Source of the DNA: Leptogorgia sarmentosa
Taxonomy: Eukaryota
Assembly: GCA_964658305.1 (NCBI GenBank)
Contig: OZ210885.1
Span: 7,006,001 to 7,070,000, forward strand
Reading direction: 5' to 3'
Length of the DNA stretch: 64,000 nt
Of the stretch, positions 10,930 to 42,892 are shown one piece after another (position 1 is the stretch's first letter; each line of letters starts with the position of its first letter). The notes beneath the pieces are model-generated. The model did not search any database, was not told where the DNA came from, and saw nothing but the letters and a program-made list of their open reading frames with translations. A program made the translations under genes and the position numbers.

Positions 10930-13900
10930 ATGAATTTCCCTGCATTGTTACTGGTGACATTTTCAACGTCCACTGCCCTGGGAACTGTCTTCAAAGACGA
11001 AAAGTCATGTACTTGGAGACATTTCATGAAAACCAGCTTAGGTAACTATTCTTCATATGGTTTTAACTTTCCTATGCTTTGCACTAAAGACCAAGTCAAC
11101 CTGGCGGGTATTATAGATCCAGCGGCTAAATTGCACTTATAGTATGGGCGTAATAATTAAGGTGACCTTCGGTGGTAGAATGTTTCTGTGGACGAAATTC
11201 AAGTCCAATCGGTCGGGATGTTGGGCATATTTGACTTAACTAAAAAAATCATTAAAGTACTGCTATGTCAATTACTGAGCAGAAAGGGGGTCTTTTTTGC
11301 AAACGAGATTTCTAGATAACAATTTATTATAATAGCGCGGAATAACTTTGTGACTGCTATAAATAAATATGTTTCATACATATATGTTTGTCGCGAATCT
11401 TATTTTTAAGCTCACTATCGAGATCAGGGCGTTATTATTATTTAATATATGGCAAGCATTTGTTTTGGCGAATGGCGCAATCTGATTGGCTGCTTACTCG
11501 GCAGGATTTTCACGCAATTTTTTATATTTGCCCTATAGGAAAACAATCACAAAAAACTTTCAAATTCAATGAAATTTTATTTATTTAAGTAAAAAAGTGT
11601 TAAAATGAGCGACGAAATAAGTTAAAAATAGGTACCCAAGTGTACATGTATCTGCGCCTATGTAGCTTGGTTACCAGCGATGTATAAAATGATTTATTGC
11701 CAGGAACAGGCGAATAGCGCAAATACTTATTTCTTTTTTGACGTGAGGTTTTGCATGGTTAAGACGTGAGACGTATTCAATACTTGATATAAGCTTTCTC
11801 GCATTCCGGAATTCGCGCGATTCATATCAAATTGCATAATGAATTTAAACTTGACGAAATATGATATCGCATTTTATGCTATTGCGTCCTTAATACTTAA
11901 TAGACAGCGCTTTGCGATTGTTTGTGAAAAATGTGGCTTACTAAAAACCAAATTTACTCTTTTCAAAACCATATTATAATAATATATTTATATGCGCTAT
12001 ATTCTATCCATTCATGCAGCATTTGCCTAGACGCTCAAGTGTATGATGGGTATGCATGCGCGTAGGTTTAAAACAGAATACTTGAAACTATATATGATTT
12101 CGTTTGTTTTGTCTCGCGCTTAACAAACGCGTTTCATTACAAGCTACAAAATCTATTTTCCTGGGATTGAATGTTTCAACCATTCTGTATGGCGAAGCGT
12201 CAAAATATAGTAGATATTCCGTGATCACAATGACAACGCGTGCAGTCCAAACATGTACAAATGTGTCAGTGCTGACTGCTGACACGCTAAAGTATCGTAG
12301 GGAAAATATACGAGCAATTTTGTCAAGACATAAACCTCTTCATAACGTGTATAATATTCGCTGTGCGAATAATGTGTAATATTACCGTGTATTAAATACA
12401 ATGTATAATTTGCGTCATGATATTTCTGCTTTGATGATCTAAATTCCATAGCAAACCTCTTTAATATCTTTAAAAGCAATGCCAATGTATGATTTGCGTC
12501 GTGATATTTTTGCGTATCTGCGTATAAATCTGTGGCACGCAGTGTCTCATTTCTATCCTACTTTTGATATCCAAACAACCCGTAAGACCTGCTGTAATTC
12601 TGTCATGTTTACCCTTACCAGATCAAGATATGTCTCCGTATAAAATGGCGACAAAAGTAGGATGGAAATGAGAAAAAAGTACAATATTTTAAACGATTTA
12701 CCAAGCAAGCTTCGAAGTTCGGAGTATTTGCAAATGGCGGGACATCAGAATTCAGAATCGACATGCGAAAAGCTCTGCTCTGATTGGGTACAAGCTAACA
12801 GCGCGAAGCTCTGATTGGCTAGAAGCTAACAGCACGAAGCTCTGATTGGCTGCAAGCACGGTTACAGTTACAGTTACAGTTACAGCTAACAACACGATAG
12901 CAATATATCTGCGTCACTACGTCACGCAGATACAAAAACATGTTTGAACATTGTGTTCTTTTTTTTGGTAGCCAATAACATTTTAGAGAACAATTTTTGC
13001 GACCGTGCAGTATCCTCCAGTACGGATCTCACACTCAGTCAATGAAATATATGTATGTCCAGAAAGTTTGGTATTGAATTCTCGAATATCAGTTGTAGCA
13101 AAACTACACAGCTTTATTCTTTTTATATATCACTCTAGCAATTCAAATGTGTTTGCTTCAGGGGCGCACGTACGTCAGGCATGAATGTCGAGTCAACACA
13201 CTCCCTTAATTCAAAAGATTGAAAATTTCAATCTTCAACAGTTTGAAAAAGAAATCAGTCTACTATATATTATTGAATTTAGAGTGAAAAATACTGTCAG
13301 TGGATAAAGACGACTGAGAACCATTTCAATCTTTGTAAAGATTAAAAATTTTAAGTCAATCATATTGCTCAAACTTCGCGTGTGCGGCAATAGCAGAATA
13401 AGCTTCTTTGAATCGAAAATCGATTGAAATTTGATTGAAAAGTCACTCTTTTAGATTGATTTTTTTTCAATCGCCCATAGAATTGATTTTCAATAGAAAA
13501 AGTTTGGTCCGTAAAAACAATCCTAAAGAGATTGTTCTTACGGATAAATAGATTGAATTTTCAATCGTTGGAATTTAGAGAGCAGCGTTTTTGTTCTTTG
13601 TCAGGAAACCAAGCACTTCGTCCATCAAACTTGATCTCAAGTCACAACGTTCATCTTTTGGCAGAATGTCATCTTCTCTGTGTAAATGCAAGCAATTGCT
13701 ACGGTTATAACTTCAGAGTCAGACCTAGCAGTGTTAATACAGCCAACTGCCAGTTGAGTAACAGCTCCGTGAAAATGAACGGTACAGAGATGAGAAATGG
13801 GTCTTGGATTTTCTACGAGGATGTTTTGGTAAGAATATATCAGTGAATCAAGACATATTTATTCAGCCGAGACGATTTTGAGCATAGGCATTTTGCTTGC

Positions 13901-16900
13901 TTACGCAAGGAAACAGTAATCAACTGAATTTTCCGTAGTTGTTTGAAAATACTACAGTAGCAAGCTATGACAAATAGTCTGCTCAGCCAATCAAAATGAT
14001 GAATTCGGAACAGCATAGTACAAAAAAAATCGCACGTGAGATTAATTAGTAGAGCAAAAAAAACTTTTCGAGCTACGTCCTTCAAATAAGAGTTACTATA
14101 TCTAAAGAGGAATAACTCATGTTGATAGAATATTAATAGATGTATCCAAGTTTCAATTCCAAGTAGCATTTATTGCAATGCCTAAAACTAGGCAGTGAGG
14201 TCAACTGAACATGTAACTTGAACACATTACTTATATTTATTTGTCTAGAAATTGTTAAGCACAGAAAATAAATAACAGACCGAAACATATCTATGCACAA
14301 AAGCGTGCACCCCCATATTTGGGCTCTGACCGTATTTCATGCCTCAGTGTGTAGCTACTAAAAATTCTTACGCAAAATTCTATCACATTGTAGGTCACTG
14401 AAGGTAAGCGAAAATTATGAATTACTGAGGACTCTTTCCACAAAGGTAAATACGTGACGCTCGTGCAATAACCACATGAGAGTGACATCTAATTTTGTGA
14501 ATACAATTACTTTTTATTGCGTTTCTTTTATCAATCATAAAAGTTTCGATTCAAACTACATCAAGCGGGGCGACATAGAGTGCCCTGGCTTGTTCCAATA
14601 ACCAAAAAGGGTACTGTTTTGATACTCTATTTTGAGCTTTTTAATCATTGTTTCAGGTTTCAGCTGCCTAGCTGAGTTTTGGGCAGTGACCTCTAAAGGC
14701 CCGTTTACACTTGCAACTTCCACTTCAATTTTTATTGTGATTTTCTGCTTTTGATGGATGTTCACGACGGAGACATGCACTCAGCACATTCGTTGTTAAT
14801 CCGCTCATTCACATCCATCAAAGGGAGAAAATCGTATTGGAAATCGCCGCAAAAATCGCAAGTGTAAACGAGCCTTAAGTTCACTCGCTCTTTGGCCGGA
14901 TTCTATCTCCTAAAGTTCAATTATTTCAGACATTGACGAATGCTCACAGGGTAGCCACAGATGTCATTTCAATGCAACATGTATCAACACTCCAGGTTCT
15001 TACGACTGTCAGTGTAGAAGTGGATACACAGGAAATGGCCGCACTTGCACAGGTATTGGCATATGATATTTGTAATGGAAATGTAACTGGTTCCAATACT
15101 ATAATGGAACATGCATGATGTATTATAACCGAAACTACCTTTCTGACGGCATAATCTTAAATTAAAGAATGAGCTCACTAATTTTTGTGTATTACGTTAG
15201 ATATTGACGAATGTCTGGACAATTCCACACATTGCGACTCGAATGCAAACTGCACAAATACTGACGGTTCATACAAATGTAAATGCTCTCAAGGTTACCG
15301 AGGAAATGGACAGAATTGTACAGGTAACTATCTTGGCATCTTCGGCAAAGTTCCACTAAAAATTGAAACTGTCAAACAGCAAATTTTTCAGACATTGACG
15401 AATGCTCTGAAGGCAGCCATGGCTGTCACGCTCACGCTGACGCAACCTGTAACAACACTCAAGGATCATACAACTGCACATGTCCCAGTGGAAAATATTG
15501 CCAGAATCTCAAAGGTGATTTATTTCGTCGTGAAACGATGTATTTCAGTTTTGTTTGGTGTGACGTGTAGACTGTGGAGACCAGTGGCGAAGCTAGCCCG
15601 AAAATTTGGTTATGTTCATTCCTCTAGAACTTGATTGTTTTCGCGGTATTTAAGGCTTTGTTACACAACGGATTCTTACAACTTGCAAACCACGTTTACT
15701 GTTGAGAGATGTGAAATTAGCTAATGTCTTCGCTAGATTTTATTTAGGAATTTTTTACAATACAAACAGCCTTCACTATTATTGACTTCTTGCAACTGCG
15801 TCGCAAGCTGCGAGAAATATTGCAACGTGTGACAGGGCATTTAAACGCACAAAAAATTGCATACCATGACCAAATCGTCGGTCTGCACGGCTTCACAACT
15901 AGCGGAGATGTGTTTTCATGTCTACAATGATTAATTTGACCCTATACAAAAGTAATATATCAATCAACAGTAGCGCTGGAAGGTTGACGATGGGTAAATC
16001 GGCAAAATGGGGAGAGGGGGGACAGATTTATATATACTCCTGTTTACAGACCTTGAAAACAATTGATTTCAATAGAAATTAGTAAAGCAAAAAAAGGAGT
16101 GCACGAATATGATCCCCTCCCCCCCGAATTATCGATCTTCCGCCACTACTGTTAAACTAATGTTAATGTTTTACTATAAGGGCTGTAGCTAGAGCTAGTT
16201 CTTTTGAAATCAGTTGTTATTAATTTTAAAAGAAATCCGTATGCTGTCGTACGTCAACATCGACATCAACACATGAACATAAATCCCCCTCAAAGAAAAC
16301 TAACTATCAATTCCTATTCGACATTGTTCGATTAAATTTATACTCACCTAGACGTGTCAGAGATATTGAAAAATGAAACAAACGAATTCGAAAATAAGTT
16401 GAAAGAATGGTTGCCAAGAGCAGGATATTGGAGCATTTGTTGGCGAGCAACACGCGATGGTTGGGCTGCGAGTACATTTCATTCAAGATGCGATGGAAAA
16501 TCACCGACCTTAACTATCGTTCAAGTTACCAACAAAAATAAAACGTACGTTTTTGGTGGTTATGCTAGTGAGCCGTGGAACACTGACAGTAAGTTTGATT
16601 AATCACTCCATCATTTCGCCGCTGCCGCAGAAAAGAATGCTATGCGGGGTGCTATTATCCCGCTATTGGAAATATTTTGTGAAATAAAACTCGGCTGCTA
16701 TAATTTCTTTCGCTTTTTAAAATAGAACTTGACTGCTCGAAATATAGTTGTTTATATTTGTGTTTTTTAAAGCCAGTTACGTTCTTGTTTTCGATAAACT
16801 TCTGGTTTATTTTGTGTCTGTATTTCGGAAAGAGGAAAGAGTTATCAAACCTAGGCCTCATTAGATTTACTATATACATGCAGGATGTATAAAAGTCAAA

Positions 16901-17737
16901 CTGCCATAGTTTGTTTTTCGCTCAACTTACATCTTGTTCTTTCATACATCTTGCGAACGAAGGTCCGGTTTTTATGCAAATTTTGGGCTAAAACTAATCG
17001 AAGCAGATTATTCCCGTTATTAGCATTTCGGAGCGCATAATTTGCATTGTGGCCTTAGTAGTATCATGCATATTAAGTAAGTACAAGCGCTCGTTTTCAG
17101 ATACTTCAAAATATTAATGGACTTAGTTAAACGTAGTTTGCGAGCATTCACAATGCTGTTGTTTAAAACTTCAAAACACCATTCATCATGCCACAGCGAA
17201 CAATTCCGAAAAGAACATTCATTCTTGAAAACTAGAGCCATATTCACTTGGAAACTTACACTTCTTTGTGAATGACTCCTTATACACCCTGCATACGACA
17301 GTTCGCTGCCCGAGTAATCGCATATATATAGTACGTTAAGAACCATTTTAATAAAGCGATAGTTCGTAAGTTTGAGATAAATCAATATTTTATTGCTGAC
17401 AGGGTTTATTTTTACAGGTGGTTATGGATCTGCTCCAGGATCATTTTTGTTTTCCCTGCGCAATAAAGATGACCTTCCACCATTCAAGGCTCCGCTGAAA
17501 TACCAGAATCACGAGAATGCACTTTACTGCTACAGTACATATGCACCAACATTTGGTGGTGGTCACGACTTGCACATTGCCAACGATGCGAAATCAAACA
17601 CCAAATCCTACACCCATCTTGGTTACTCCTACCGAGTTCCATCCGGATACACTTACGGCCAAGCCAACACACAATCCCTCCTGGCAGGAAGCTATCACTT
17701 CACTCCATCAGAAGTTGAAGTGTTATATTTAAAATAA
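10930..17737 (+). CDS. Gene 1: predicted secreted protein, signal peptide-PAN/Apple-3x Ca-binding EGF-TLDc, 423 aa, 8 exons
   Basis: Exons 10930-11041, 13605-13828, 14394-14403, 14930-15052, 15201-15323, 15392-15514, 16352-16588, 17418-17737. All introns are GT-AG and the total of 1272 nt is in frame. Motifs: [18 protein letters not shown] signal; [17 protein letters not shown]...NCQL PAN; DIDEC...CxNTxGSYxCxC cbEGF; WRATRDG...[10 protein letters not shown]...VFGGY...SFLFSL...PTFGGGHDL...EVEV TLDc. Confidence 0.9.
12771..12885 (+). repeat. Short tandem repeats (31-bp GCTCTGATTGGCTAGAAGCTAACAGCACGAA x~3 and GTTACA x4) inside an intronic repeat
   Basis: Read directly from the sequence. Confidence 0.75.
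14698..14874. mobile_element. PIF/Harbinger-type MITE in gene 1 intron 3
   Basis: ggcccgtttacacttgc...gcaagtgtaaacgagcc TIRs. Confidence 0.75.
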
Positions 17738-21080: not shown

Positions 21081-24000
21081 ATGAACTTTCTTCCATTGTT
21101 ACTGGTGATACTTTCAATGTCCGCTGCCCTGGGAACTGTTTCCGAAAACGAAAAGTCATGTATTCGGAGACATTTCAAGAAAGTCGGCCTTGGTAAGTAT
21201 TTTAACGTTTTCTTTGCCCTGCACTAAGGACAAAGTTAGGCTGGCGCGTTTAAAGTCCAGCAGCAAAGTGGATTATTCACGATTATTCCGTTTACAAATC
21301 ACACCAAAATACGATTGGAAGTTTGCCGTTTGCGGTTAGCCGTATGCCGTAAACGTAAATCTTAAAGTGCCTAATGTTTTTTGTGGTCCACTCGGCCATA
21401 ACTTTGGGTGATAACAAAATCGTTCAAATGTTTAATGAGGAGCGTAGCGACGACTGTGTGATTGGGGGTAGGGGGTGGGGGGGCTGGGTGCACGACTCAA
21501 TTTTGCCGTCAAAATGGGCGTGGTCGGGGTGTGGTTTGGATGTGGTCAACGTCGTTATCAGCTTAATTTCTGCTTAAATTCACTCTTGCCGACAGAGGCA
21601 AAATTGGGGGCAAAAGTGCGACGCCCCCCCCCGCCCCGCACCACCCATTCGCTACGCCCCTGTGTTTAATAATTACTTATGCAGAAAAGTGGGTCTTTTT
21701 GGTCGGATAACGGGTTATGATAATAGCGCGAAATAACTTAACTGCTATTCTGAACAAGGTCCAGGGAATAAACCTAAAAAAATATCCATAATTCATACCA
21801 CGGTCATTATGGTAATTTATGATAATTTATGGTAATTTAGTTAATATAGATAGAGCAAATAGTATAGCTTGGCCTCAAAATGGTGCCACTACAGTCAGTT
21901 TCATCAGCACACGCCATGCATGAATATCTGTGATTCAATGACTACAGTTACGTTTGTGTTCTTTGGCAGGAAACGAAGCATTTCGTCCACGAAATTTAAT
22001 CTCAAGTCACAACGTTCATCTTTTGGCAGAATGCCATATTCACTGTGTAAATGCAGAGAATTGTTACGGTTATAACTTCAGAGTCAGACCTAGCAGTGTT
22101 TATACAACCAACTGCCAGTTAAGCAACAGCTCCGTGAAAATGAACATGACAAAGATGAGGAATGGGTCTTGGAATTTCTACGAGGATGTTTTGGTAAGAA
22201 TAATGTCAGTAGCGGATTACCCAATATGCTATGTAGGCTGAAGCCTACAGGTCCGGGCTTTCGAGAGGCCCGTGATTTGTAGAACTTATATTTTTACTTC
22301 AGTTCATAAAACCCGAAAGCCCGGATTCCATTTCAACCATGGCTTAACGAAACGTAACGTCTATCATTATTATGTCATTTCTACTAGACGGTTGAAGTGG
22401 AAAGCATGCAAGTTCGAATCCCGCTTCAGTCGACGCAGGCGCGGATCCAGCTTTAAATCTGACCGTGGCAGGGTCGAAAATTCGCATAACCAGGGGGGGG
22501 GGGTTCGGGGCACCACCCCCCCCCGTAAATTGTCGAAATTTGAACACATTTCCCTGCGTTCAGAGCATCGAATTCTATCATATAATTCGCCATTAATTCC
22601 GCCATATTTTAGAGAGAAATAACGAATCGCACTCAATGAACTTAAATCGAGATCATATTACTATTTGACCAACTTCAAATAATTTACATATAAAATTTGC
22701 ATACACAAATATTCCCTGGCCCTAAGGCAATTGCAAATTTAATATAAATCTATTAAAATTTCTTACTTAACACGGATATTAGGCCCAGATCTTTCAATTT
22801 GACTCTTGGGGAACTGCAGTTTGGAAAATTCGCACACTCGCAGCACGATGTCGCCTGTAGATTTTATACGGCGCAGCTTTCCTTCAGTGATAAATTTATA
22901 TTTATCACACTGTTGCCTCAAGAGCGATAACTCCCCTGAAATATCTTCGCCCTGGTTCAATTTTGGAAAGATTTCAACGAGCTTCTTGAGAACATCGACC
23001 TTTTCAAAAGCCTCCATTCTAACAGCATTCGATTCAGCGAACTGATCAATATAGCTTGTTATGAAATTCTACCCGTCAAGTCCGACGAGTACCCGAACTC
23101 ATCGTTCATCATTTGCATTGCGCAATAAAAATACGCTCACCGTGGCGCACCGTGGCGCACATGACCACATCTAGCCCTGTGATTGGTTTGCACCTCTGCA
23201 CCGTGGCAGAATGTTACTATATTTAGTAACAATTGCGAAACTTTTTGCACGCTGACCGTGGCAAAATTTGTGGCTGTGATCGCAGGCGGCAGCTTCAAAT
23301 TTGCGAGTGTTTACCGAACATATTCGGCACACTTCGGTACGGTTTCGGCTGTTCTTATAGTTCAGTGTTAACTGAATGATTATGCTATAGAAAAAACATA
23401 ATATTTCGGCGTTTTCATTGCGTTTGACGCGAAATACTACACCACATAAAATAATGTGAACAATCCGGGAAAATGTTATTCAAATTGGCTGTTTTAGAGT
23501 TTAGATGCAGATTTCCTTGATTTTGAACGATTTATTTCAAATTATTATTCATATATATACTTTAATCTAATTTGCGAAAAAGGTGAACCCCGGAAAATCT
23601 AAGGTGGGAAAAATCTGACCGTGGCTCGCGCACCGTTCGCCACGGTCTGGATCCGCGCCTGCGACGAATTAGTCAATCGTTGTCTCATACCAGTGTCATT
23701 TTATCATGAAAACTAGCTGCTTAAATTCATAAGTAAATTTAGTGACTGGTGGCATGGGAATAGATATCATCTCCAAGGCCCGTAATTTCTTCTTTAGCCT
23801 ACAGGACCCGGAACTAGTAACCCGCCACTGAATAATGTATCTGCAAAATGAGTCATATTTATTCTGCTGAGCTGATTCTGGGGAAATAGCTGTGTTTACA
23901 TAATCTCACATCAACACGGCTGTTAGTCAATCACGTGCGCGCAATCTTTTTCACTTAGCTACTTATTAGCACCGGTTATTTTATAAATAGGAATAATGCA

Positions 24001-27000
24001 TGGCTCGATAAAAAATGTCGTATCAACGTTTATCTTCGCTTCAAATTTATCAAATCAAACGTTTCAAATTTATCTCTTACAACGCTGTATATCATTTAAT
24101 AAAAAATTAGTCCAACATGTTTAGCACCATTTTTTCAAATTGTTTATCTGTTTTGTACGATATTTTGAAAAACACCAGGGGCCGGTTGTATAAAAACGTA
24201 CACAGTAAATTTTTAGGGGTAAAAATTACCCCGAAAAACGAGGGCAACTGAATGTCCACAGAACGCCCCGTTTTTTGAGGGAAAATCTTATGGGGGTAAA
24301 AATTACCCCTGGTGGGCAATTCGCAAGTGGGGTAAAAATTACCCCATATACAGAGGTTTATTCACAAGCTACCCCAATTTGGGGTGAAATATTTTTCACC
24401 ACATTTAGGGGTGAAATTACTTGATTGGATTTTTTTCCAATAACAAAACGAATAAGATAAATGCTAACGCGTAGTTTATTTATAAATACATTACCAAAAT
24501 ATAGATAAAAATATATAAATTAGGTATTTACTTCTATAAATACATTAACAAAATATAGATAAAAAATATATAAATTTAGGTATTTACACACAATTATTTT
24601 CATTTACATGATATATACACATAGTTACATGCAATAACTTATTTCAATAGCATGCATGCAGGTTAACGTGCCTGCTGTAAGTTACAAGTTTAAAACGTAC
24701 TTTCATCGACGGAACGGTGTGTATAAAGCTTAACTTAATCTATATTTGTTAAATCATTCAGCTTTTGCACAAATTTTTGTAATGTTATACAATTGGCTAT
24801 GGATGAGCACCCAACTCGACCTGAGGTACTCAACCCGAGAAGCACGTTGTCGAGGAAACCGAAAAGATTTTTGTACTCCCTAGGGTATTCCAAGTTGAAT
24901 ACGTAGAAGCATTGATGTAATGCGAAAAAAACGCTTTCGAACGGAAAACCTGTTCCGTTCAAAAGTGTTTGCCCTTCAATGGCAAGGGCCAAACGATCAA
25001 CTTTCATTACATTTTCTGCTATACCTATGATGGTAGGGGATTTTGTCTTCCTTATTTCGTCCTCAAAATCATCATCTTCCTATAAATAGTACAGGGAATA
25101 CAATAATATACGTTAATTTTACGAACCTATATGTGTTCATTATCTTAGTACGTAAATAGGTATAGGCTACCAGTATTACGCATGCAAGTGTTGATTAGGG
25201 GACAGTTTTTTCTTTTCACAGCCACATTTCAAAAAGTGTAAATAAGTGCACTCAACAATTTTTTCCAAAAATAAATTACACCATGATAATCCCCAACAAG
25301 AGAACCCAACATTTGTGTCATATGCACTGTAACATTTTAGAGATGGGGGATTAGGCTGTGAGCATGCAAATGTGATGATAGCTATGTTGGTAATCCTAAA
25401 TGTGTAACAAGTGTATTCAGTAGATGACAACAATAGGCAACCAAAGTTCTACTAGTGTGCTAGTGTTCTAGAACTTTTGCTTTTATTGTCTAAAATAATA
25501 ATGGTACAGTGTTATCATTCACACCCAGCTATTATCATTCACATACTTTCAGAATTCTTCTTTAGGGGAGAGGGATCCACTCAGCCTTTAAAGTCTCCCA
25601 CACTTCAGGGAGGTGTTGTGTTTGCAGTATATTAGGAGGATTAGCAGTTAATACCAGTAGTTCCTGAGAGATGTATATAAAGTTCTTGCAATATTGGAAC
25701 TTTTGGTTAAAATTTTCTGGTGGCATTCCTGCTTTCATTACCACTTGAATGAACAGCATATTACCAGCAGACAAAGGTGAATGTCAGTGCATGATTACTG
25801 TCTAGCAGTCCTCATTGTGTACATCTAACGTTTTTCAAGTGATTATTATAATTACACATAATTAGTTGAGTGCAGGTTGATAGGAGACTCTGCCTCCATG
25901 GCTAAGTCATATGTAAAGTTCTGGTAGTTTTTGGTTACATAAATACAATGTTCAAAAATACATTAACATTCTTCATTCTTCTTCTTAACATTCTACAACA
26001 ATTATAAGGATAAGTTCAAGATGTAATATGTGTTGCAAAATTAAAGAACTTATAATCACTTAAATTTGCATGTTACCTAGTTACACAAAATTTGATTCTG
26101 GATAATAACTTCTAATCATACCACGGCACTCATGTCCTTGTGTTTTGTCAAATTTTATACAAAATTGTGCAATTCAACAACCTAAAGCCTTCTTTTTCCC
26201 ACCATGAAATATAAATCAATCTAGTACAGAAAATTGGAGCATGAACATTCCGAAATAGTTATATATTGGTTTTTAAGGCTTATTGTGATTATATAAATAA
26301 GGCTGTATCAATTAAGATTTTGTTTCACTATTTGTTTTTTGTACAAGGATATTGTTAGTGTAATTGTATTCTACAATAATTAATGCCAAAGTGGTCGTTT
26401 CACAGTACAAAGCTGGAAACTTTACTTGTTTGTGTAAATTTAATTATTAGTTTATATAACTGCCATTCTCCGTAATACACCTGTAATATTTTGTCTATTT
26501 AATGTAGAATTGTTAACCTACCTTTTCTCAGATTCAATAATACATCAAGCCTTAGCAAAATTGGTATTTAATTTTGTCTTTCCATGTTGATTTGACTTTC
26601 ATGTTTATAATATAAAAGATCACTCGTAGTGTAACTCCTTGAAATCCGCCATTTTGAAAGTTTTCATGTTACCCAACCCGTATGGGGTAACTCTACCTAG
26701 GTACCTTCACCCTGTAAATTGGGGTAAATTTTACCCCATCGTTTACCCTAGCAGGGGTAGTTAGTGATGATTTCACAACTACACCTTTGAAGGGGGTGAA
26801 ATCACGATGACAGTTGAATTTTACCCTAAGTATTAGAGTAATTTTTACCCTAAATTAATTTACTACAGTAGAAAGGGTAAAATTTACCCAGCTTCAGAGT
26901 AATTTTTACCCCCCAAAATTTACTGTGTACTTAAAATTAACTTTAGTTAAGTGCGAAACTTGACCAATCAGAAACGCGTATTGCAAAGTTAACTACCATT

Positions 27001-30000
27001 TAACTGCAAAACGGATAGTTAAAACGTAGTTAAGAGTTTTATACAACTGGTCCCAGATCTATTTCTCGTGTGAAACGTGATATCTCACGCGTGCGAGTGG
27101 GATGTCATGCTCAACACTGGAAATAAATTTTCGTGTTGTCGGAAAAATTAGGTTGCTCCTAAATCTATCTGCATAATATTGGTTTCCAAGCACTAAATCA
27201 AACTAAAACTAACCCTAAATATAAAACTAACCCAACTCTAAAGCTAAACCCCTTACCCTAAAAACCCCCAAAAAACTTATTTTATTTCATGAAAAATTCT
27301 TAAGCTAAATTTTGTTACTCTGTAGGTCACTAAAGGTAAGCAAGAATTATGAATTAAAATAGAATCTCCTACAAAGGTAAACTCGTAAATAATTATGTCA
27401 AAATTGATAACTTACTACTACCTAAGGGTGAAGGGCCTTCGTGTTTTAAGGAGTCGACTATACAGGGTTAATAAAAAGACGAAAACAAATATGAAGTCCC
27501 AAGACGGTTCGGGGTACGAGAACCTTACGAGATAATTAGCTTTTCCCATGCTAATTTGACACTTGTCCTTAATTTGCATATGCATATTAGATAATTATGC
27601 ATGCAAAGCGTTTGCTCGAAAAGTCGAATTTTCATCCTCTTTAGATAGTAAGTGTAACTTTAAATGTTATTATTCAAAATACACACTGGATACAGATCAA
27701 AACATGTAACATAACATAACATAAAATGACATGTCGTAGAATATATGAATATATAATTGATATTCATTGAATATATAATATGAATATATAATTGTTTATC
27801 GAGCTCCTTTTATCCTTCCGTAAAAGTGTCCATTCAAACTACATACAAAGGGGGTTATATAATAAACATACATGCAGGGAGGTGAGTCCGGGTTTGCGTC
27901 CAATCACGGAATTACCGAACCTTGCAGGTATGTTTAGTTTTTATCCCATGCCATTTCGCTAAAAAGATTTATCTGGACTGCCCGTGCCGAACAAATTTTG
28001 GCGGTCATCTTTCTTTTCTTTCATCTTTTTCTTCACTTCCACTTTGAATATAAAATATTCCATTTTCAATCATGAACCCACCTCCTAAACATACGTCAGC
28101 GGGTGGGCTCGAGTTCGAACGCACCTCCTCTTAGCCAATATGGAATCCTCTAATACGCAAGGTATGGGATAATGTAGAATACCCTGGTTTGTTCCAATTA
28201 CAAAAAATAGGCACGCACCATTGTGCGTGCGTATTTTTTGTAATTGGAACAAAACAGGGTGCATGCGTCTACGTTGATGCTACATTTTGAAACTCACTGT
28301 ACGATCACTAATATTGCGATCCGAAAATATAGGGAATGTGACGCAACGAAGTTCCAATTGTTATTCTAAATCTCCTCATCCAGGTCGGATGAGTGAAAAT
28401 GTTTTAGAAATCGCTTTACCGAAGCTTTGAAATGAGTCCTTCGAATGAACGTTAGAACAACGCACACTGACACAGCTTGACAGTGAAACACGCCACAGTA
28501 AATCATATACGTCACCAGTTAATTTGCTGACAGTTCGATACATCGTCGGTAGAGATAACAACGTTTGAGTGTTAGTGTTTACCTTGAGAGCTCGTGACGT
28601 CAAAATACGTCATATGCGTTGTTGAAACACAGCCAGCCAGAAATTTTACGCTTACATAGCCTCTACGTTGCTTAGCAACGTAGACGCAAAAAGGGCAATG
28701 CATGATTTCTTTTGAACTTTTTAATGATTGTTTTAACTGCCTCCTAACTCGCTCGCCCTTTCTGTCTCTCAATTATTTCAGACACTGATGAATGCTCTCA
28801 GGATAGCCACAGATGTCATTTCAATGCAACATGTGTCAACACTCCAGGTTCTTACGACTGTCAGTGTAGGAGTGGATACACTGGAAATGGCCGCACTTGT
28901 GCAGGTATAAGATATTTGAGATCAAAATGCAATATGTACCAATAACATTATTACGCATTTAAAAACAACGCACTACATACTGCAACTTTTTTGTATATCG
29001 GAAGTTACTTTCAGATTGCATAATCTTAAATCAAGGAATGAGCTCGCTAATTTTTGTCATTATGTTAGATATTGACGAATGTCTGGACAAGTCCAATCAT
29101 TGCGACCCGAATGCAAACTGCACAAATACTGACGGTTCATACAAATGTAAATGCTCTCAAGGTTACCGAGGAAATGGGCAGAATTGTACAGGTAAATATG
29201 TCGCGAATCTTTTCTTCGGCGAAATCCCGCAAAAAAAATTGAAATTGTCAAACAAAAATATTTATATTATTTTTAATTTTTCAGACATTGACGAATGCTC
29301 TGAAGGCAGCCATGGCTGTCATGCTGACGCAACCTGTAACAACACTCAAGGATCCTACAACTGCACATGTCCCAGTGGAAAATATTGCCAGAATCTCCAA
29401 GGTGATTTATTTCGTCGTGAAACGATGTATTTCAGTTTTGTTTGGTGTGACGTGTAGACTGTGGAGACCAGTGGCGAAGCTAGCCCGAAAATTTGGTTAT
29501 GTTCATTCCTCTAGAACTTGATTGTTTTCGCGGTATTTAAGGTCGTGTTACAACTGTTGAGTTGAGAGACGTGAAATTTGCAAGTACTTGTCTCCATTAC
29601 ATTTTCCTAATGATTTCCTTACAAGTCAGATATAGGTTCACTAATTAACATCTCTTAACAAATGCGTTGCAAGTTGCAAGATCACGAATTCACGATCATC
29701 CCAAATCGTGGGGATGCACGGCTTCTCCACTAGTGGAGATGTGTTTTCATGTCTCCAATGAAGTCTTAAATGGACCAATTGCATAATAGAGAAATTTTTA
29801 AAAAGTTCGAAATAGTACAATTCATAACAATAGCGTTAAAGAGCATCCCAAAATTACTAACATTGCAAAGTTTGGGTGCAAAATGTGATAAAATACGGAA
29901 AATATAACCGTGCAAAGTAGGGAAAATTTGTATACTTTTGTATTAGCTACGTGCGTCAATTGCTAACTAAATTAGTTACTTCATTTCGCACGTAATACAA

Positions 30001-32583
30001 AAGTATACAAAAGTAACGGCCGTAGCTAGGGCTATTTATTTTGAAATCAGTTCTCTTTAATTTCAAAAAACATCTGCAGAATATCAATATAATTATGAAC
30101 ATTCACCACCCAAAATTAACTCCCTAGCCTGGGCCTTGTCCGACATTGTTCGATTAAATTTATATTCACCTAGACGTGTCAGAGATATTGAAAAATGAAC
30201 CGAACGAATTCGAAAAGAAATTGAAAGAATGGTTGCCCATAACAGGATATTGGATCATTTGTTGGAGAGCAACACGAGATGGTTGGGCTGCGAGTACATT
30301 TCATTCAAGATGTGATGGAAAATCACCGACCATAACTATCGTTCAAGTTACCAACAACAATAAAAAGTATGTTTTTGGTGGCTATGCCAGTGAGCCGTGG
30401 AATACTTACAGTAAGTTAATTACAGTTATACTAGAAATGCATACCTGAGGCATCAGTCTACTCTCGCCTTAATAACAGAAGATGCGAATTTATTTTTTTG
30501 TAAATCAGCAGCGGACGGAATCATAGCGTTAAATTAACTTAAGGTTTGCAACCCTTGCGGCTCTTGGAAATAGACCCAAAACAAATCCGACGTTTATCGA
30601 AAACAAAACACCAAACGGCTTTAGAAAGAACACAACTTGAAAAGTAGTCTTTACTTTTAGCCTAGTCCAAAATTTGACACAATAATATATTGATAAAAAT
30701 ATTCTGGCTTCAAAATCGGGTCGCAGAATACAATAGGATCATAGGTGTAGAGTTGGGGGGGGGGGGGGCTCTGGGGCTGGGGGCCCCCCAGAAATTTTAT
30801 ACTGGGGGCTCAGCCCCTGCAGAAATATTGCTGAAATTTGTAAGTCAACTGTACGAAAGAACATTTTCATGCCATCTAATAAATAGACTCAAGTAGTCAA
30901 ATAAGATTACTTTAAGCTCTTGTACGTTGAAGTTTTGTTAGTACATTTTGTTAAATTGCTATATACAACCTAAATAAAATTTCTTGGGAAATTCTGGTGG
31001 TTTAAGTCAGTTCTAGTTAAAATGTTTGCAAATGTTGTATTACAATTCACCTATGTTTTTCACACCCCCTAAACCCTTAAGAGTTAAGGATGTTTGTTGC
31101 TTGTACTACGGTAGTCGATGTTATGTGTAACCAGGTATGAGCCCCCCCCCCAGACAAAACTAAAACTCTACACCTATGAATAGGATGGTGGAATCCAGTC
31201 TCAACGGTATCTCAAAAACCGTTAACAATACGACAATGAGCTGGTTAGTCAAAAATATTCCAAGATTTGTTTCATCTTTCCAAAGGCCAGAAAAGTGATA
31301 TGCTGCTGTGGCATACCACTTCAGCTGTTCAGCCAATTGCCTATGACTTGGGTGACAGAGAGTTGTAGAATTTGTGTGTGGCAAATGTAACAACACATGC
31401 TGGAAAAGTACTGTTGATTAAAGATAGATAGCTTTAAACTTGTGCCGTGACAATATAAAATATTTCAAAATGTCTTAACTGCAGATACGTGCATGTGGTA
31501 GGCATCAATTGCAACAGTTGTGTCTTTTTGCCCAGATAATCTACCGTGTTATATAATTTATTTAGTTGATGTAAAGTAAAAATGCATGCCCGTAATATTA
31601 GAGGGTCGTCGTGATCGGGTATTCTCTGCAATACCCTGACAATGGGATGGAATTTTTAATATTTTCAATTTTAAAGAGCATTTTTCGTTTTACACTCAAA
31701 ATTTACTTATGCTAGCTTGTCCATACAATCAAACAACTAAGGGGGTTACACTGTCTACATATTTTAGAAATCGTTTTCTTTGAGATCTATAAGATGCTCA
31801 CTTCTTCAATATAAAAGCCCATGATTTCGGTCAACCATATTGCTCTACATCATCCGTCTTGGCTATACGCACGCGGAATCTTATTCAGTTACACCTCAGC
31901 TTTTAATACTTCATTTATATGCTAGAAAATGTCATGCTTCCTGACGATGCATTGTGCGCTCACAGTTGAACGTTTATTGTTTTGGGAAGGGGCAACTTCT
32001 TTGAATTCGCTGTATATGAACTAAGGTTACTCACTCATTTATGCATTTGAACTTTGAACCACTTAGACTAATTAAATAAAAATCTGTGTCACTGAGAGTT
32101 TAGAATTTAAATATGTATTTCCTGGATTGCAAAAAATCCACAGCCAGGCAATATTTATAGGCTGCAGCCTACTTTTCCGAAACTAATGATCTTCATCACG
32201 AAATATTCGATTAGCAAGATCAATCATATCTACCCAAGGCCAAGTTAACAACGTTAATTTTTACAGGTGGTTATAGATCTGCTCCAGGATCATTTTTGTT
32301 TTCCCTGCGCAATAAAGATGACCTTCCACCATTCAAGGCTCCTCTGAAAGACCAGAATCACGGGAGTGCATTTTACCGTCACAGTACATATGGACCAACA
32401 TTTGGTGGTGGTCACGACTTGTACATTGCCAGCGATGCGAAATCAAACTCCAACTCCTACACGAATTTTGGTTACACCTACCAAGCTCCATCTGGATACA
32501 CTTACAACCAAGGCAACACAAAATCCCTCCTGGCGGGAAGCTATTACTTCACTCCATCAGAAGTCGAAGTCTTATATATCTAA
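21081..32583 (+). CDS. Gene 2: tandem paralog, signal peptide-PAN/Apple-3x Ca-binding EGF-TLDc, 420 aa, 8 exons
   Basis: Exons 21081-21192, 21970-22193, 27326-27335, 28782-28904, 29069-29191, 29285-29401, 30174-30410, 32267-32583. All introns are GT-AG with the same phases as gene 1; 1263 nt in frame; signal MNFLPLLLVILSMSAALG. Confidence 0.9.
21437..21662. mobile_element. hAT-type MITE in gene 2 intron 1
   Basis: gaggagcgtagcga...tcgctacgcccctg with a perfect 8-bp TSD TGTTTAAT. Confidence 0.85.
22207..23830. mobile_element. hAT-type non-autonomous element (outer), 14 nt into gene 2 intron 2
   Basis: cagtagcggattac...gtaacccgccactg TIRs with a perfect 8-bp TSD AATAATGT. Confidence 0.9.
22436..23661. 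mobile_element. Nested DNA transposon with 5-bp TSD (hAT5-like) carrying a coding remnant
   Basis: Perfect 15-bp TIR CAGGCGCGGATCCAG, TSD CGACG, repeated accgtggc subterminal motifs, minus-strand ORF remnant at 22763-23017. Confidence 0.85.
24179..27053. mobile_element. PIF/Harbinger-type MITE (outer), split by a CACTA-like insertion
   Basis: gggccggttgtataaaa...ttttatacaactggtcc with a 3-bp TSD CAG. Confidence 0.8.
24201..26927 (-). mobile_element. CACTA/EnSpm (CMC)-like transposon, internally deleted
   Basis: CACAGTAAATTTT...AAAATTTACTGTG TIRs, TA TSD, many ggggtaaaa-ttacccc subterminal palindromes. A terminal exon at 24735-25079 (-) encodes EDDDFEDEIRKTKSPTIIG...CFYVFNLEYP...FLDNVLLGL. 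Confidence 0.85.
28180..28260. repeat. Near-perfect 81-bp palindrome in gene 2 intron 3
   Basis: accctggtttgttccaattacaaaaaata-ggcacgcac-catt-gtgcgtgcg-tattttttgtaattggaacaaaacagggt. Confidence 0.85.
30740..31178. mobile_element. hAT-type MITE in gene 2 last intron
   Basis: CATAGGTGTAGAGTT...AACTCTACACCTATG with a perfect 8-bp TSD AATAGGAT. Confidence 0.9.
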
Positions 32584-37412: not shown

Positions 37413-39927
37413 CTTAACGAATCAAGTCTCGTGCAACTTCACTAGCATTGCGAATTGTCGTTGAAAATCACACCGTGTAACATCAGCTTAAATGTTGTTA
37501 GTTTGTCCTATTTCTGTCTTTTCTCTTCCACGTTGTTTTTTTTTGTTTGTAGTTCGTTGAGTTCAGTTTTTGCAATTCCACACTAAGCTATAACCGAACA
37601 GGAAAGATAAACACGGCACATAATTGGAATATATTGCCACCTGCAGGCACAATTTATTGCGCACAATTACCAATGCAAAATGGTGTTGGTGGTAAATGTT
37701 GCAAAATTGCTCACAGAGATCTTTACACAATTCGCAATGCTATCATAAAATAACCGCGCCATCTGGAGGCAAGGAAAACTGACCTCACGGTGCAAGGTAG
37801 CCTGGGTCGGGCGATGGTGTTGCGGTGCCTCCCGTCAAGTGTTAAACGACTTCTTTATTTGATGTTTTATGATAAATTACGGGATCGTCGAGGCCGTTAG
37901 GGGGACAACTTATTCAACTACTTCTTTTATAATATTTCTTTAATGTTGTTCCAGTGCGTGTGACCTTCCAACTCTGTTGTCTAACTAATGTGCGTAGTGA
38001 TATCTTTTACATATGACAAGGTGCATTGTGCATTGTTCATTGTTCATTGTTTATGGATGCGAGCGCATCCTAACTAATTAATAAGGTTCAAAGTTCCTAT
38101 ACACAAGGCAATCTAGCGCAAATTATATAACAAACAAAAATTCAGTTCTTTTTAGCGTCCGAGAAGACCACTTTCTTCGAGCACCCCGCTTTTATATCTT
38201 TAGTATGAATAATTATTATAATAGTTATGCTAATGCATGTGTTGTTAATAATCGATTAATTGTATAGAAATACATTCTCTCCTAATGGTGCGCAATCGCA
38301 GAGAATAGACTATGCCATAGCCTTTACGTCGGTCTACGTCTACTGACTATGATTGAAGGTCCTTTTACACGACATGATTTGTCTAGCACGATCCGTATTT
38401 TAGCGTATGAAAAATACCGCTGGTTTCTCCGCTCAATTTGTCGAGATTAAGGCATATGGATTTGAAATGTAACTTTTTCATGCGTGCTGACTCGATTACA
38501 TAAGCTAGAATGCGAAGCTTAGCGCGTAAATGTGTCTTGAGATAAACAGCTCATTATATCTGATAATAACAGTCGAGCAGATCTTTTGCGCACGCCGTGA
38601 ACAGCAAAGCCTGGAATGTTGAATGGCAACCAATCAGCGTTGAGGTTTTGTAGTTTGAACCCTCGTTCCAGCCCTCATCTTGTTTGTTTCTCTGACTCAA
38701 GTTATATACTCATTCTAATAATACTTAAGTCGTTGAAACTAGACTATAATTTAATAAGAAAATGTTCAAACTATAAGTATCTAAACTTACAGTTTTATGA
38801 AGTAACTCTGTTACTTCTTACTCACAGTTGCTTCAGGGTTCTGCATAGTGTAAAAATACGCAAGAGATTATCACACCCAATTCCATGTATACTAATGAAT
38901 AACTCTAATAATAATTAATAATAATTATGATTATTATTCACTTTATAATATTTTCACTTTTGTCTGGTTAATTTTCCTGCAAATAACTGCGTGCAAATAA
39001 TAGTCTGAGCATGCGCAATGTCTTCAAGACATAGAGGCTCTCTTTCCTGAACTTGCAAAAGACGATTTGTCGTCCTTTTTTGGAGAAAAAAATGCAGCTA
39101 AATTGACCAAACAAAAATGAGAATACTATAAAACTTATTGAACTCGGTTCTCGGAAAATATCGTGATTTGTCGGGAGTTCGCAGATCTATTATTTTTCTC
39201 GCAAATCATAGGCGTACTGGCACATTTTTTGGGGGGGAGGGGGAGGGGCTGGGCTGAATTTGCCCGAATTATATGACGTCATAGATTTCGTGACGTCATC
39301 ATAATACTGTATAATCTGAGAATACTATAAATGAAAAGCTTTCCTTTGAAGATTGATATACAGTTACTGCCCAAAAGTCCAAATACAGACCTACTCCTTG
39401 ACAAAAATGACCCTCCTTTTTACTTATATTGGAGATAATATTCCTGTCCCGCTCGTTATATGAGCAACGAAACCTTTGCATTTATAGCATGTATAACATC
39501 CTTGAACCAGTTGTTTAATACAGAAAGAGTTATTTCTTTTCATATAGATGATTAAATCAAATTAAACTTCTGGGCAGTAACTGTAAAAAGAAATATGTCG
39601 TCCCTAGCCATTTCAATTATAAGCTAAATATATCCATTACCATTTACAGAGAAAGAGGAAGTTACTAACGTAACAACATTTTATTTGATATATGAATTCT
39701 CTGATGTACGACACTAGACATGCAAGGAACTTTAGTTTAGCAAAATGACAAATCAGACAATTTTGGCCCGAATAGATGAATTCTCAAAAATTTGCGACTA
39801 TGTCCCAAATCACGATATTTTGCTGATGATTATTTTCTCTAATTAACTCTAACTATTTTTTCCTAGAGTAATATATATATTGAATAATCTCCCCGAGTAT
39901 TGCTTCAAAATTGGCGGAAAGGCAACG

Positions 39928-42892
39928 ATGCATATAAAGTTCCATTTGTTGACCATTTTTATCGCATATACATTACGAGTAGGAATTGTCGCGAAAGACC
40001 AAAATGCTGAGAAAAACGGAATTCCTAACTTTTGCTTCAATGCAAGTTTAGAGGGTAAGTATACATACAAGCTGTGGAAGTTGCACCACGAAGTTCAGTC
40101 GCTTTTAGGCATCTTCTAAAACATGTCACATTGAAATCAATTGATTTTTACAGTGACAAAGCTATAGAAGGTTGATTGGGGGAGGGGGAAATTGAATGGG
40201 TGTATACTCATTCATTCGTATTCTATTCGACTGAAAGTTTATTTCATAAATTAAGAAATCAATCGTGGAGAACAAGAATGTATGAATATACCCCCCCCCC
40301 CACCCCCCAGATAATGTCCCAGTCACAGTACGACCTGATGTTTCCTATTTTTTTAAGACACAATGCGTTTTACACGCCAGGCGTACCGGTTTTGAAATTT
40401 TTGTAGGGCGGAATTCAAATATAGTGTCTGAAATACCATTTCCTGCGTTTTGGTGGCAAAATATTGTGCATGAAGCCTGTGGGAAAAGAAGAAATAAATG
40501 TTGGCAATATTGCTAAAACAGGATAATTGCCTGACTTTTAAGTAGGAATTGTCCAACTGATGTGGGGAGTGTGGGGAGAGGGGTTTGCCCCCGTGCTCTC
40601 TCGCCTCAAACAGCTATGCTCATTAATGATGCTTCAATTCCGTAGGTTTCAGACTTAATGTGACAGTTTTCATGAGGAAAGTGGTTCCTGATTGGCTTGC
40701 CTGTGTGTTGGAATGTGTCACAGAGCCATGCTGTCGATCAATCAATTATAAAAACACATTGAACTTACAGAATGAATCAAATTGTGAAATGTTGCATAAT
40801 ATGGTCTACAATATCTCTCAGGAATTCTTGGAAGCCAATTTTTCTTATAACCATGTTTACCTCAATAATCCTCATAAGGTAACAACAGAGAATTGCTCTT
40901 TTTCGCACATGTGTACAAACATTATATCAGTTTTGTTGAAAACCAAGATGTAAAGGTTGAGAAGTATAATCAGAAGAAAATAATGTTGACAACTTTTCGG
41001 ATGTCAGAAATGTGAATATGCATTCGTTTGGGAAACTTGGGTAGTCACGTGCATTCATCATGCAGGAGCTTCAAATAAAAAATAACCAATAAATCCATAA
41101 TTCGTAATATCCTTTGATCTTTGTCTTATTATATAGGAATACAATGAAAAGTGTTTTCCGAAGTTCCCAAATCACAAATTCAAAGGTAAGTATCTGAATT
41201 TTTTTGGCTATTTCAACTAGTTTTATCCATCACAAACGGCGTCAATGTTCTTACTAGCTATAATTTATTGTATCATAGGCAGCCCAGAAATGAGCTGTTT
41301 TCTTTATATAACCTAAAATCAATCGATTTTATGCATGATATAGCTTCTATCGAATGGCTGCATCGATAAGTTGTCGCGCGATATATATATATAACTGACA
41401 GCACTAGCTACGTACGCGAGCGTCGCCCGAGATTAACCGACAAATTATCGATGCAGCCATTCCAGAGAAGGGATATCGTGCATGAAATCGATTGATTTTA
41501 AGGATATGTAAAGAAAACAGCTCATTTCTGGGCTGCCTATGATTGTATTAACTTTCTTCGCTTTTCCATCAGTATTTTAAAAATCAATTACATGAACTTT
41601 GAAACTGCTAATGACCGACGCCATGTTGGATTTTGGTTCTTCGCTCATTCCTTGTTCAGAAATATTACCGTGTGTATTACATCAATAATCTCCAAGCCAA
41701 GGTCAAGCAATGCCTTGCATTGCCAAGCAATCTACTATAATATATTTCTGTCTGAAATTGATCAGTTAAATTCATGTATTTCTAGGCGTATCAAAGATAT
41801 TGCAAAATGAACCAAAGAATTTCGCAAATAAGTTGAAAGAATGGCTGCCGAAAACAGGATATTGGAGCCTTTGTTGGCGAGCAACACGAGATGGTTGGGC
41901 TGCGAGTACATTTCATTCAAAATGCGATGGAAAATCACCAACCATAACTATCGTTCAAGTTATCAACAACAATAAAAAGTATATTTTTGGTGGTTATGCT
42001 ACGGAACCATGGGATATCAACGGTAAGTTGAATTTAATACAGTTTTATATGTAATCAGAAGTGAGAGGCCCTCAGCCCACCCTGCCACCCTCGTCCGACG
42101 CCCCTGATATTAACTGCTTTATTAATGATGTACCTACCTGCACGTTATGCAATATGCATTCTCCTGCAATCACGAAATAAATGTATAGCACTTTATTCTA
42201 AATTGGATTTTAAAGTCGCCAATTTCCTTAATTTATTGTTCTGATGTTAAATTTGAATCATATTTTTATTTCGTTTGATTCTAAACTAGCCCAAACACAA
42301 CAAATGCAATTTTTTTGCGAAATAATAGGATTCAGTTTTGTTTAAATTTAACTTAAACTTATCAAGTCCACTGCTTTCGATGGAATTGAAACATATTTTA
42401 AAAGTGTTACATTTGTGCTGATTTTAAAAGTGTCATATTTTTGTGATGTAGTGATGATTTAATTTTTGTCGCAATCTTATTTCCTCACTTTCATGCCTTG
42501 TTAGCTACTTTTTGTCACTTTTCATCACAAATAATTTTTATATTGAAAGTGATATGTTTATTTTAGCGGATTATTTTACATCTGCTCCAGGATCATTTTT
42601 GTTTTCTCTGCGCAATCACGATGATCTTCCGCCATTCAAGGCTCCACTGAAAGATGAAAATAGTGGGCAGGCAATTTTCCTTGATAGTGAAAACGGACCA
42701 ACATTTGGTGGAAATTTTGACTTACATATTGCGAACAACGCAAAATCGAATGCTCAATCCTTCACAGAATTTGGTGGCACCTACCAAGCTCCATCCGGAT
42801 ACACTTACAAACAAACCAACACACAGTCCCTCCTTGCAGGAAGTTTTGCCTTCACTCCATCAGAAATTGAAGTCTTAAATTTGAATGAATAA
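39928..42892 (+). CDS. Gene 3: predicted secreted protein, signal peptide-PAN/Apple-TLDc (no EGF), 323 aa, 5 exons
   Basis: Exons 39928-40054, 40646-40878, 41137-41185, 41786-42022, 42567-42892. All introns are GT-AG; 972 nt in frame. Motifs: MHIKFHLLTIFIAYTLRVGIVA N-terminus; ACVLECVTEPCCRSINY...NCEML PAN; TLDc exons paralogous to genes 1 and 2. Confidence 0.85.
41274..41541. mobile_element. P-element-like palindromic MITE in gene 3 intron 3
   Basis: CATAGGCAGCCCAGAAATGAGCTGTTTTCTTT long TIRs with a 7-bp TSD ATTGTAT. Confidence 0.85.

Follow-up and report, generated by a model that had tools for sequence, protein, structure and literature searches.

A tandem family of predicted secreted PAN-(EGF)-TLDc proteins in Leptogorgia sarmentosa and a possible extracellular role of the TLDc domain

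We analysed a 64,000-nt stretch of Leptogorgia sarmentosa DNA (contig OZ210885.1, positions 7,006,001 to 7,070,000; hereafter the window), in which three neighbouring genes (g1, g2 and g3) join a predicted signal peptide and a PAN/Apple module to a C-terminal TLDc domain. The window is animal-type DNA with a GC content of 33-46%, and the closest named homologs of its genes are proteins of the octocoral Dendronephthya gigantea. The original prediction, made from the letters of this DNA, had described three intact tandem genes with GT-AG introns and compatible phases. Models spliced by script from the window coordinates (Table 1) bear this out: 18 of 18 introns over g1-g3 are GT-AG, the phases are compatible, and there are no internal stops. 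A 10-nt micro-exon is required in the models of g1 and g2, and a 49-nt linker exon in that of g3. A translated search of the 64-kb window found no fourth copy of the TLDc gene.

Table 1. Gene models and other features of the window (window coordinates)
Feature	Position	Strand	Basis
g1, 8 exons, 423 residues	10930..17737	+	scripted splicing
g1 exon 1: start codon ATG; predicted signal peptide at about residues 1-18; C27 as a spare Cys	10930..11041	+	heuristic
g1 exon 2: PAN/Apple module	13605..13828	+	Pfam PAN_1 22.7 bits, cut-off 21.4
g1 exon 3: micro-exon, 10 nt, phase 0 to 1	14394..14403	+	matching residues in P0002
g1 exons 4-6: cbEGF1 14930-15052, cbEGF2 15201-15323, cbEGF3 15392-15514	14930..15514	+	each phase 1-1
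g1 exon 7: TLDc first half, cysteines C268 (C-W-R) and C285 (F-H-x-x-C-D)	16352..16588	+	Pfam TLD E 2.4e-12
g1 exon 8: TLDc second half and stop	17418..17737	+	Pfam TLD E 2.6e-06
g2, 8 exons, 420 residues	21081..32583	+	scripted splicing
g2 exon 1: predicted signal peptide	21081..21192	+	heuristic
g2 exon 2: PAN module	21970..22193	+	Pfam PAN_1 21.7 bits
g2 exon 3: micro-exon, 10 nt	27326..27335	+	splicing model
g2 exons 4-6: cbEGF1 28782-28904, cbEGF2 29069-29191, cbEGF3 29285-29401	28782..29401	+	EGF_CA, motif
g2 exon 7: TLDc first half	30174..30410	+	Pfam TLD E 1.6e-11
g2 exon 8: TLDc second half and stop	32267..32583	+	79% identity to g1 exon 8; no Pfam match alone
g3, 5 exons, 323 residues	39928..42892	+	scripted splicing
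g3 exon 1: predicted signal peptide	39928..40054	+	heuristic; aligns to Dendronephthya P0157 from residue 16
g3 exon 2: PAN-like module	40646..40878	+	PAN_4 E 0.019; model weakly matches apple domains
g3 exon 3: Cys-bearing linker, 49 nt, phase 0 to 1	41137..41185	+	g3 without EGF; residues 16-130 vs P0157 49%
g3 exon 4: TLDc first half	41786..42022	+	Pfam TLD E 1.9e-13
g3 exon 5: TLDc second half and stop	42567..42892	+	68-71% identity to g1/g2 exon 8; no Pfam match alone
144-nt tract identical in g1 and g2	15512..15655; 29399..29542		
g2 intron before the micro-exon	22194..27325		
Transposon-like open frames in that intron	22766..23068; 24738..25079	-	judged by eye
Four-tRNA block (Gly, Glu, Trp, Glu), two inverted copies	697..1257 (+); 7748..8256 (-)	+/-	86% identity
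tRNA-Ser	7177..7258		
Two tandem intronless rhodopsin-family G-protein-coupled receptor genes	45727..46653; 51751..52671	-	DNA 88% alike
C/A-rich 68-bp tandem array, about 11 or more copies	48384..49300		
GAACA microsatellite, about 70 copies	63291..63637		
Probable reverse-transcriptase fragment of a long interspersed nuclear element	1..330	-	recognised by eye

The three proteins are predicted to be secreted. Each has a hydrophobic N-terminus with a cleavage-like site, as judged only by a heuristic of hydrophobicity and the (-3,-1) rule that also passes one of four cytosolic controls (the TRIM protein P0070). The hydrophobicity of the h-region is 2.34 in g1, the weakest, 3.26 in g2 and 2.40 in g3. 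No transmembrane segment was detected in g1-g3, the best 19-residue Kyte-Doolittle means beyond residue 45 being 0.89, 0.68 and 1.20, respectively. Such N-termini, with disulfide-type PAN/EGF modules behind them, predict a location outside the cytosol. Both the signal peptide and the lack of a membrane span had been foreseen in the original prediction. The many N-x-S/T sequons that it reported are there (12, 8 and 5 in g1, g2 and g3), but almost all lie in the PAN/EGF part, and the only 2 in a TLDc domain are both in g1.

The PAN modules of g1 and g2 exceed the Pfam cut-off in exon-level frames. That of g3 falls below the cut-off with a PAN_4 match only; the best nine Foldseek rows for its model (predicted local distance difference test score, pLDDT, 75) are all apple/PAN proteins with probabilities of 0.97-1.0 and weak E values of 0.1-0.3. 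The four PAN core cysteines (C-x3-C-x5-C...C) are invariant in 13 of 13 aligned rows. In g1 and in g2 a D-[IT]-D-E-C start occurs three times, and all three modules of each gene have six cysteines and the N...Y/F motif; EGF_CA scored 44 and 77.1 bits in the scanned frames. These modules are thus predicted to be of the calcium-binding type (cbEGF). No EGF module is present in g3. The cysteines ahead of the first EGF or TLDc domain are odd in number (five in g1 and g2, seven in g3; 10930-13828, 21081-22193 and 39928-41185), and therefore one may form an inter-chain disulfide.

The joining of the PAN/EGF exons to the TLDc exons is supported by the homolog P0002. This is an uninterrupted 325-codon open reading frame on a 2,139-nt ENA contig, presumably of cDNA origin; it is 74% identical to g1 residues 98-422 with one 2-residue gap and spans six of the seven g1 junctions, micro-exon/EGF1 and EGF3/TLDc among them. 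Residues 16-322 of g3 are 44% identical to Dendronephthya P0157, and Xenia P0292 has the layout of g3, namely a hydrophobic N-terminus, a PAN module (recognised by eye) and TLDc. The TLDc exons cannot start a gene alone because they lack a Met codon and begin in phase 1. The whole-gene ratio of nonsynonymous to synonymous substitution rates (dN/dS) between g1 and g2 is 0.49, with no stops. The read data, three contig runs from one sample of unspecified kind, cover introns as DNA would and are thus uninformative on expression. In run X1 the summed depth was up to 4,257-5,634 in the g3 PAN and TLDc exon bins vs. about 80-300 in most intron bins, a hint of further paralogues, although depth is not equal to copy number and some intron bins are high too.

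The donor site after EGF3 (GTGATT) departs from the consensus, and reading on into the intron yields the same 18-residue tail and stop in g1 and g2, a possible TLDc-less isoform. This intron opens with 144 bases that are identical in the two genes; for comparison, similarity is about 80% in the introns near the tract and 98% in EGF3. The tract represents either a recent gene conversion or a conserved element. Ahead of the micro-exon, g2 has an intron of 5,132 nt and g1 one of 565 nt; the transposon-like frames of Table 1 lie inside that of g2.

By its predicted fold, the C-terminal domain is a genuine but divergent TLDc domain. The first TLDc exon matches Pfam TLD (PF07534) with 47.5, 44.9 and 51.1 bits in g1, g2 and g3, respectively (cut-off 24.5). 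The second exon alone is above the cut-off only in g1 (27.9 bits), with no match in g2 and g3. P0002 matches the TLD profile over positions 15-166 of 170 (73.7 bits). The AlphaFold model of P0002, with its 74% identity to g1, was used for the fold comparison in place of the spliced window proteins, and its pLDDT is about 90 or more across the TLDc domain. Foldseek matched this model to NCOA7, Skywalker and OXR2 (E 1e-8), and also to mEAK-7, Rtc5p and Oxr1. Structural comparison with six TLDc chains, to which its identity is 12-21%, gave Z scores of 20.1-14.4 and root-mean-square deviations of 2.0-3.1 A; of 48,161 chains, the highest-scoring one outside the TLDc family reached Z 4.4. The proposed architecture of PAN, three cbEGF modules (g1 and g2) and a complete TLDc domain is therefore upheld by the Pfam matches, the motif counts and the fold, with a weaker PAN in g3. 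A relation to the fibrinogen-like fold (Foldseek ranks 17-18, E 0.11 or worse) was rejected, since Z scores of 3.4 with FGL1 and 3.2 with Angptl3 are at background.

The original prediction had named OXR1, NCOA7, TBC1D24 and MEAK7 among the characterised, intracellular TLDc proteins and had raised a possible loss of the V-ATPase-binding surface. Alignment to V-ATPase-binding TLDc proteins covers the first half of the domain only; the second half gives no significant alignment. Among the V1-contact residues of mEAK-7 given in the available part of PMC9263379, the equivalent of G276 (NCOA7 G815) is kept in the window genes, H277 is replaced by W, and P316 and Q317 map to a variable loop at the TLDc exon junction. 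NCOA7 S817, a contact given in PMC8608904, is changed to A in all three genes. Of the contacts that can be aligned, H277, P316, Q317 and S817 are changed and G276 is kept; the four C-terminal contacts cannot be aligned. The equivalents of NCOA7 G815 and G845 are present in the first-half alignment, and those of G896, L926 and E938 were placed by motif position only, with no significant second-half alignment. As far as the accessible text of PMC8608904 goes, G845, G896, L926 and E938 are buried and required for folding.

By sequence comparison, the nearest relatives of the head are cytosolic BTB-TLDc proteins (38% and 45% identity to octocoral P0004, vs. 12-21% for the V-ATPase-binding chains) and not OXR1, NCOA7, TBC1D24 or MEAK7. 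Uncharacterised cytosolic relatives from protists and cnidarians with BTB, BACK or TRIM modules ahead of this domain (Copromyxa P0022, Montipora P0168, Dendronephthya P0070) share the motifs R-A-S/T-R-D-G, F-H-x-x-C-D and G-P-T-F-G-G-G-H-D with the window proteins, but mostly have Leu or Ile at the site of an extra cysteine discussed below. The position after BTB, BACK or TRIM is the usual target-binding slot.

A homolog search of 1.84 billion representatives gave 10,278 matches at E 0.001, and Pfam architectures were scanned in 29 proteins and then in 103 of 135 further representatives. This TLDc type was found in extracellular-type proteins of 15 named anthozoan species; clade members with no species name were assumed to be anthozoan. 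We hand-sorted 136 proteins by partner domains (1 more had no usable domain) and removed 10 near-duplicates before building a quick IQ-TREE tree (LG+G4, midpoint root, OXR1-type sequences left out). One branch, with a Shimodaira-Hasegawa-like approximate likelihood ratio (SH-aLRT) support of 97, united every animal-type extracellular row (44) with 2 TRIM/B-box rows from octocorals, and g1-g3 fell into a 6-row subgroup with P0002, P0014 and P0157. The clade is shared by octocorals, stony corals and anemones. Because g1-g3 sit within it, the earlier statement that TLDc has been moved outside the cell stands as predicted secretion but not as a local relocation. Two Dendronephthya proteins inside the clade (P0070 and P0300) are cytosolic RING/B-box-TLDc(-Death) proteins that keep the extra cysteine. 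Short TLDc-only open reading frames (P0008, P0011, P0013 and P0016) were dropped as candidate cytosolic isoforms, being probable gene calls from an internal Met.

Within the clade the domain is carried by many different chassis. Predicted gene models of the PAN-(EGF)-TLDc form occur in six named species (Dendronephthya, Xenia, two Montipora, Stylophora and Oculina). P0048 of Oculina is a signal peptide-H-lectin-Kazal-C-type lectin-EGF-TLDc protein, which is the full domain set of the lectin LePin plus TLDc; part of this set occurs with TLDc in P0075, P0068 and P0087 (Acropora, Actinia and Stylophora, respectively). P0053, P0064, P0069 and P0062 (Montipora, Actinia, Exaiptasia and Oculina) have an N-terminal membrane anchor, collagen, three Ig domains, Sushi and TLDc, and we take them to be built like class A scavenger receptors with TLDc replacing SRCR. 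Other chassis are TSP1-TLDc-TLDc, fibrinogen-like-TLDc, TLDc-ZP and TLDc-F5/8-MAM. In Oculina and Actinia different chassis lie on contigs of equal reported size, which suggests that they are clustered in these genomes. An ESM Atlas cluster of 62 members (TLD 98%, EGF 94%, Cnidaria the commonest phylum) indicates that the family has been catalogued automatically, with no name. Sister clusters from cnidarians, likewise built on an EGF or PAN/EGF stalk, bear D8C or COLFI instead (scores 0.75-0.77, leads only), in agreement with the earlier view that TLDc fills a terminal slot.

A proteome search for proteins that combine a signal peptide with TLD had been proposed; extracellular-type TLDc proteins were found across anthozoans, and predicted surface forms, separate from these, also elsewhere. 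The latter come from choanoflagellates (Salpingoeca and Microstomoeca), from a rotifer, from giant viruses, as PAN_4-TLDc in viral contigs (45 loci, L001-L045), and probably from bacteria. In P0104 and P0111-P0127, P0120 and P0122 included, TLDc is accompanied by WSC, by MopE-like repeats and EGF, or by a type IX secretion tail. These are probably viral and bacterial surface proteins, with the bacterial origin deduced from their domains.

A cysteine two residues ahead of a conserved Arg (C-W-R) is found where the cytosolic relatives have Leu or Ile. It is carried by 46 of 47 extracellular proteins of the animal type, by 17 of the 36 remaining extracellular ones and by 4 of 53 intracellular ones. 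Overall this amounts to 63 of 83 extracellular vs. 4 of 53 intracellular proteins, counts that kinship makes non-independent, so the link between cysteine and secretion is not significant. Among 409 domains, the F-H-x-x-C-D cysteine is kept in 134 of 135 with the extra cysteine vs. 241 of 274 lacking it. The two cysteines may form a gained disulfide.

The differences among g1, g2 and g3 concentrate in the loop at the exon junction and in the second half of TLDc. In the g1/g2 pair, dN/dS was 0.23 for EGF, 0.20 for the first TLDc exon, 0.44 for PAN, 0.94 for the second TLDc exon and 1.25 for exon 1 (37 codons). The EGF value may be depressed by gene conversion around EGF3. The divergence of the second TLDc exon is compatible with either shifting ligand specificity or relaxed constraint.

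The genes g1-g3 are intact tandem paralogues, and we consider it fairly probable that their predicted secreted products use TLDc as an extracellular ligand-binding head and not as a V-ATPase regulator. The binding role is suggested by position: in the clade, TLDc ends chassis that bear recognition domains in their other versions, and in cytosolic relatives it stands after BTB or TRIM, where a target is usually bound. In such a protein the signal peptide would be cleaved and the product glycosylated and released, the cbEGF run would be a Ca2+-stiffened spacer, and the spare N-terminal cysteine may join chains. The C-W-R cysteine would pair with the conserved F-H-x-x-C-D cysteine, and the variable TLDc loops would determine ligand specificity. 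The TLDc exon pair starts in phase 1 like the EGF exons and therefore could be shuffled onto other stalks. The ligand would most likely be a glycan or protein on the surface of microbes, algae or host cells, these and matrix ligands being about equally probable.

Several observations weigh against the binding-head interpretation. The fold gives no pointer to a lectin: non-TLDc matches do not exceed Z 4.4, and the fibrinogen-like ones at Z 3.2-3.4 are noise. The most conserved residues of the head are shared with cytosolic BTB-TLDc proteins, and for this reason no pocket specific to the secreted members was found. The C-terminal mEAK-7 contacts Y341, T354, Y367 and K384 are those not alignable to the window proteins. 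The dN/dS contrast comes from one pair, picked post hoc, with Fisher p of 0.025-0.045; the second TLDc exon does not exceed 1, and its values against g3 are only 0.39-0.44. The association of the extra cysteine with secretion collapses under kinship correction to 3 independent pairs (sign test p = 1). Moreover, 19 of 36 non-animal-type extracellular proteins lack this cysteine, and 2 cytosolic TRIM/B-box proteins in the clade carry it.

Four other explanations were considered. The proteins could be structural parts of mucus, mesoglea or sclerite matrix, with TLDc serving for assembly or oligomerisation and not for recognition. This role would fit the similar stalks with D8C or COLFI in the cnidarian sister clusters (leads only), the occurrence of TLDc with ZP and collagen, and the odd number of cysteines (five in g1/g2, seven in g3) that precede the first EGF or TLDc domain, but tandem expansion with variable loops and the lectin and Ig chassis fit recognition at least equally, and we regard a matrix function as unlikely. 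Less likely still is an antioxidant function, in which the TLDc cysteine pair would buffer reactive oxygen at the coral surface as an echo of the oxidation resistance of OXR1 and NCOA7. Residues on which protection by NCOA7 depends, both glycines and buried ones, are apparently kept and the clade has a second cysteine; however, G845, G896, L926 and E938 are described as buried and folding-required in the part of PMC8608904 at hand, a structural disulfide accounts for the cysteines equally, and a scavenger needs no PAN/EGF stalk.

It is very improbable that the proteins work on the V-ATPase from its luminal side, within the secretory pathway or the symbiosome, which would preserve the connection of the family with acidification. 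V-ATPase interaction is reported for all five mammalian TLDc proteins (PMC8608904, available sections), and the coral symbiosome is acidified by V-ATPase according to the available portion of 10.64898/2026.04.08.717340. Against this, the identity to V-ATPase-binding TLDc proteins is 12-21% and the alignable contacts are mostly altered. V1 subunits are cytosolic. The solved TLDc contacts, as given in the source text at hand, are with V1 subunits A, B, C and E, so a luminal protein cannot reach them. We give equally little credence to the idea that the PAN/EGF and TLDc exons are expressed separately, or that the main product ends by read-through after EGF3. The off-consensus donor and the shared 18-residue tail within the 144-nt identical tract would favour it, but the intron-free P0002 crosses the EGF3/TLDc junction and the Met-less TLDc exons open in phase 1. 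The whole-gene dN/dS of 0.49 with no stops and the homologous one-protein models in 6 species also argue against such a chimera or dead gene.

The stalk-plus-terminal-head design is that of collectins, ficolins and class A scavenger receptors. Their heads differ from TLDc, for which a relation in fold to fibrinogen-like or lectin domains is not supported. The same plan of stalk and terminal head is seen in the cnidarian proteins that join EGF or PAN-EGF to D8C or COLFI, but with a different head. The V-ATPase-binding TLDc proteins (OXR1/Oxr1p, NCOA7, TBC1D24/Skywalker, MEAK7 and Rtc5p) share with the window proteins the fold, the Pfam TLD match and, apparently, the core glycines and the C-terminal Glu. 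The window heads differ from them in their low identity (12-21%), predicted signal peptide, extracellular partner domains, several changed V1 contacts and the extra cysteine. LePin is a secreted alga-binding lectin of Xenia that has been shown to start algal uptake, according to the available parts of bioRxiv 10.1101/2022.12.13.520278 and PMC7332420, in which TLDc has 0 occurrences. Like it, the g1 and g2 products would be secreted modular anthozoan proteins with cbEGF, and P0048 combines its domain set with the TLDc of the clade, a comparison of domain sets and not of homology to Xenia LePin. The window genes share only EGF with it and have no H-lectin, C-type lectin or Kazal domain.

We found no account of secreted TLDc proteins in the open-access full-text literature; subscription papers and closed supplements might hold one. 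A 2026 review (PMC13570293) presents TLDc as a conserved regulator of V-ATPase and redox state, and in its available part 'secreted', 'extracellular' and 'signal peptide' appear nowhere. The octocoral skeletome papers PMC7853314 and PMC7533068 (main text, with 11 of 13 supplements and 1 supplement, respectively) did not show 'TLD' used for a domain, 2 of the 10 string matches in the supplements of the former being a peptide sequence; however, tables of this kind often give names in place of domains, and absence cannot be concluded from them. It appears that the domain is known and the architecture automatically catalogued, whereas the extracellular use is apparently undescribed.

A broader proposal, which we hold only tentatively and think rather doubtful, is that this TLDc branch is an unrecognised anthozoan extracellular pattern-recognition family. 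It would pre-date the octocoral/hexacoral split and would have gained a new disulfide. It would have been shuffled over PAN-EGF, LePin-like, collagen-Ig and thrombospondin stalks, with loops diversifying for microbes or algal symbionts. If true, TLDc would be a pattern-recognition domain comparable to the C-type lectin, fibrinogen-like and SRCR domains, and a general binding module of which V-ATPase binding is one specialised use. A large extracellular clade would in itself mean a second, unstudied job for the TLDc fold. TLDc on coral proteins with the LePin domain set or a scavenger-receptor-like build is a candidate for symbiont or microbe recognition, and the compact PAN-TLDc and PAN-EGF-TLDc forms of the window would be the simplest proteins with which to find the ligand.

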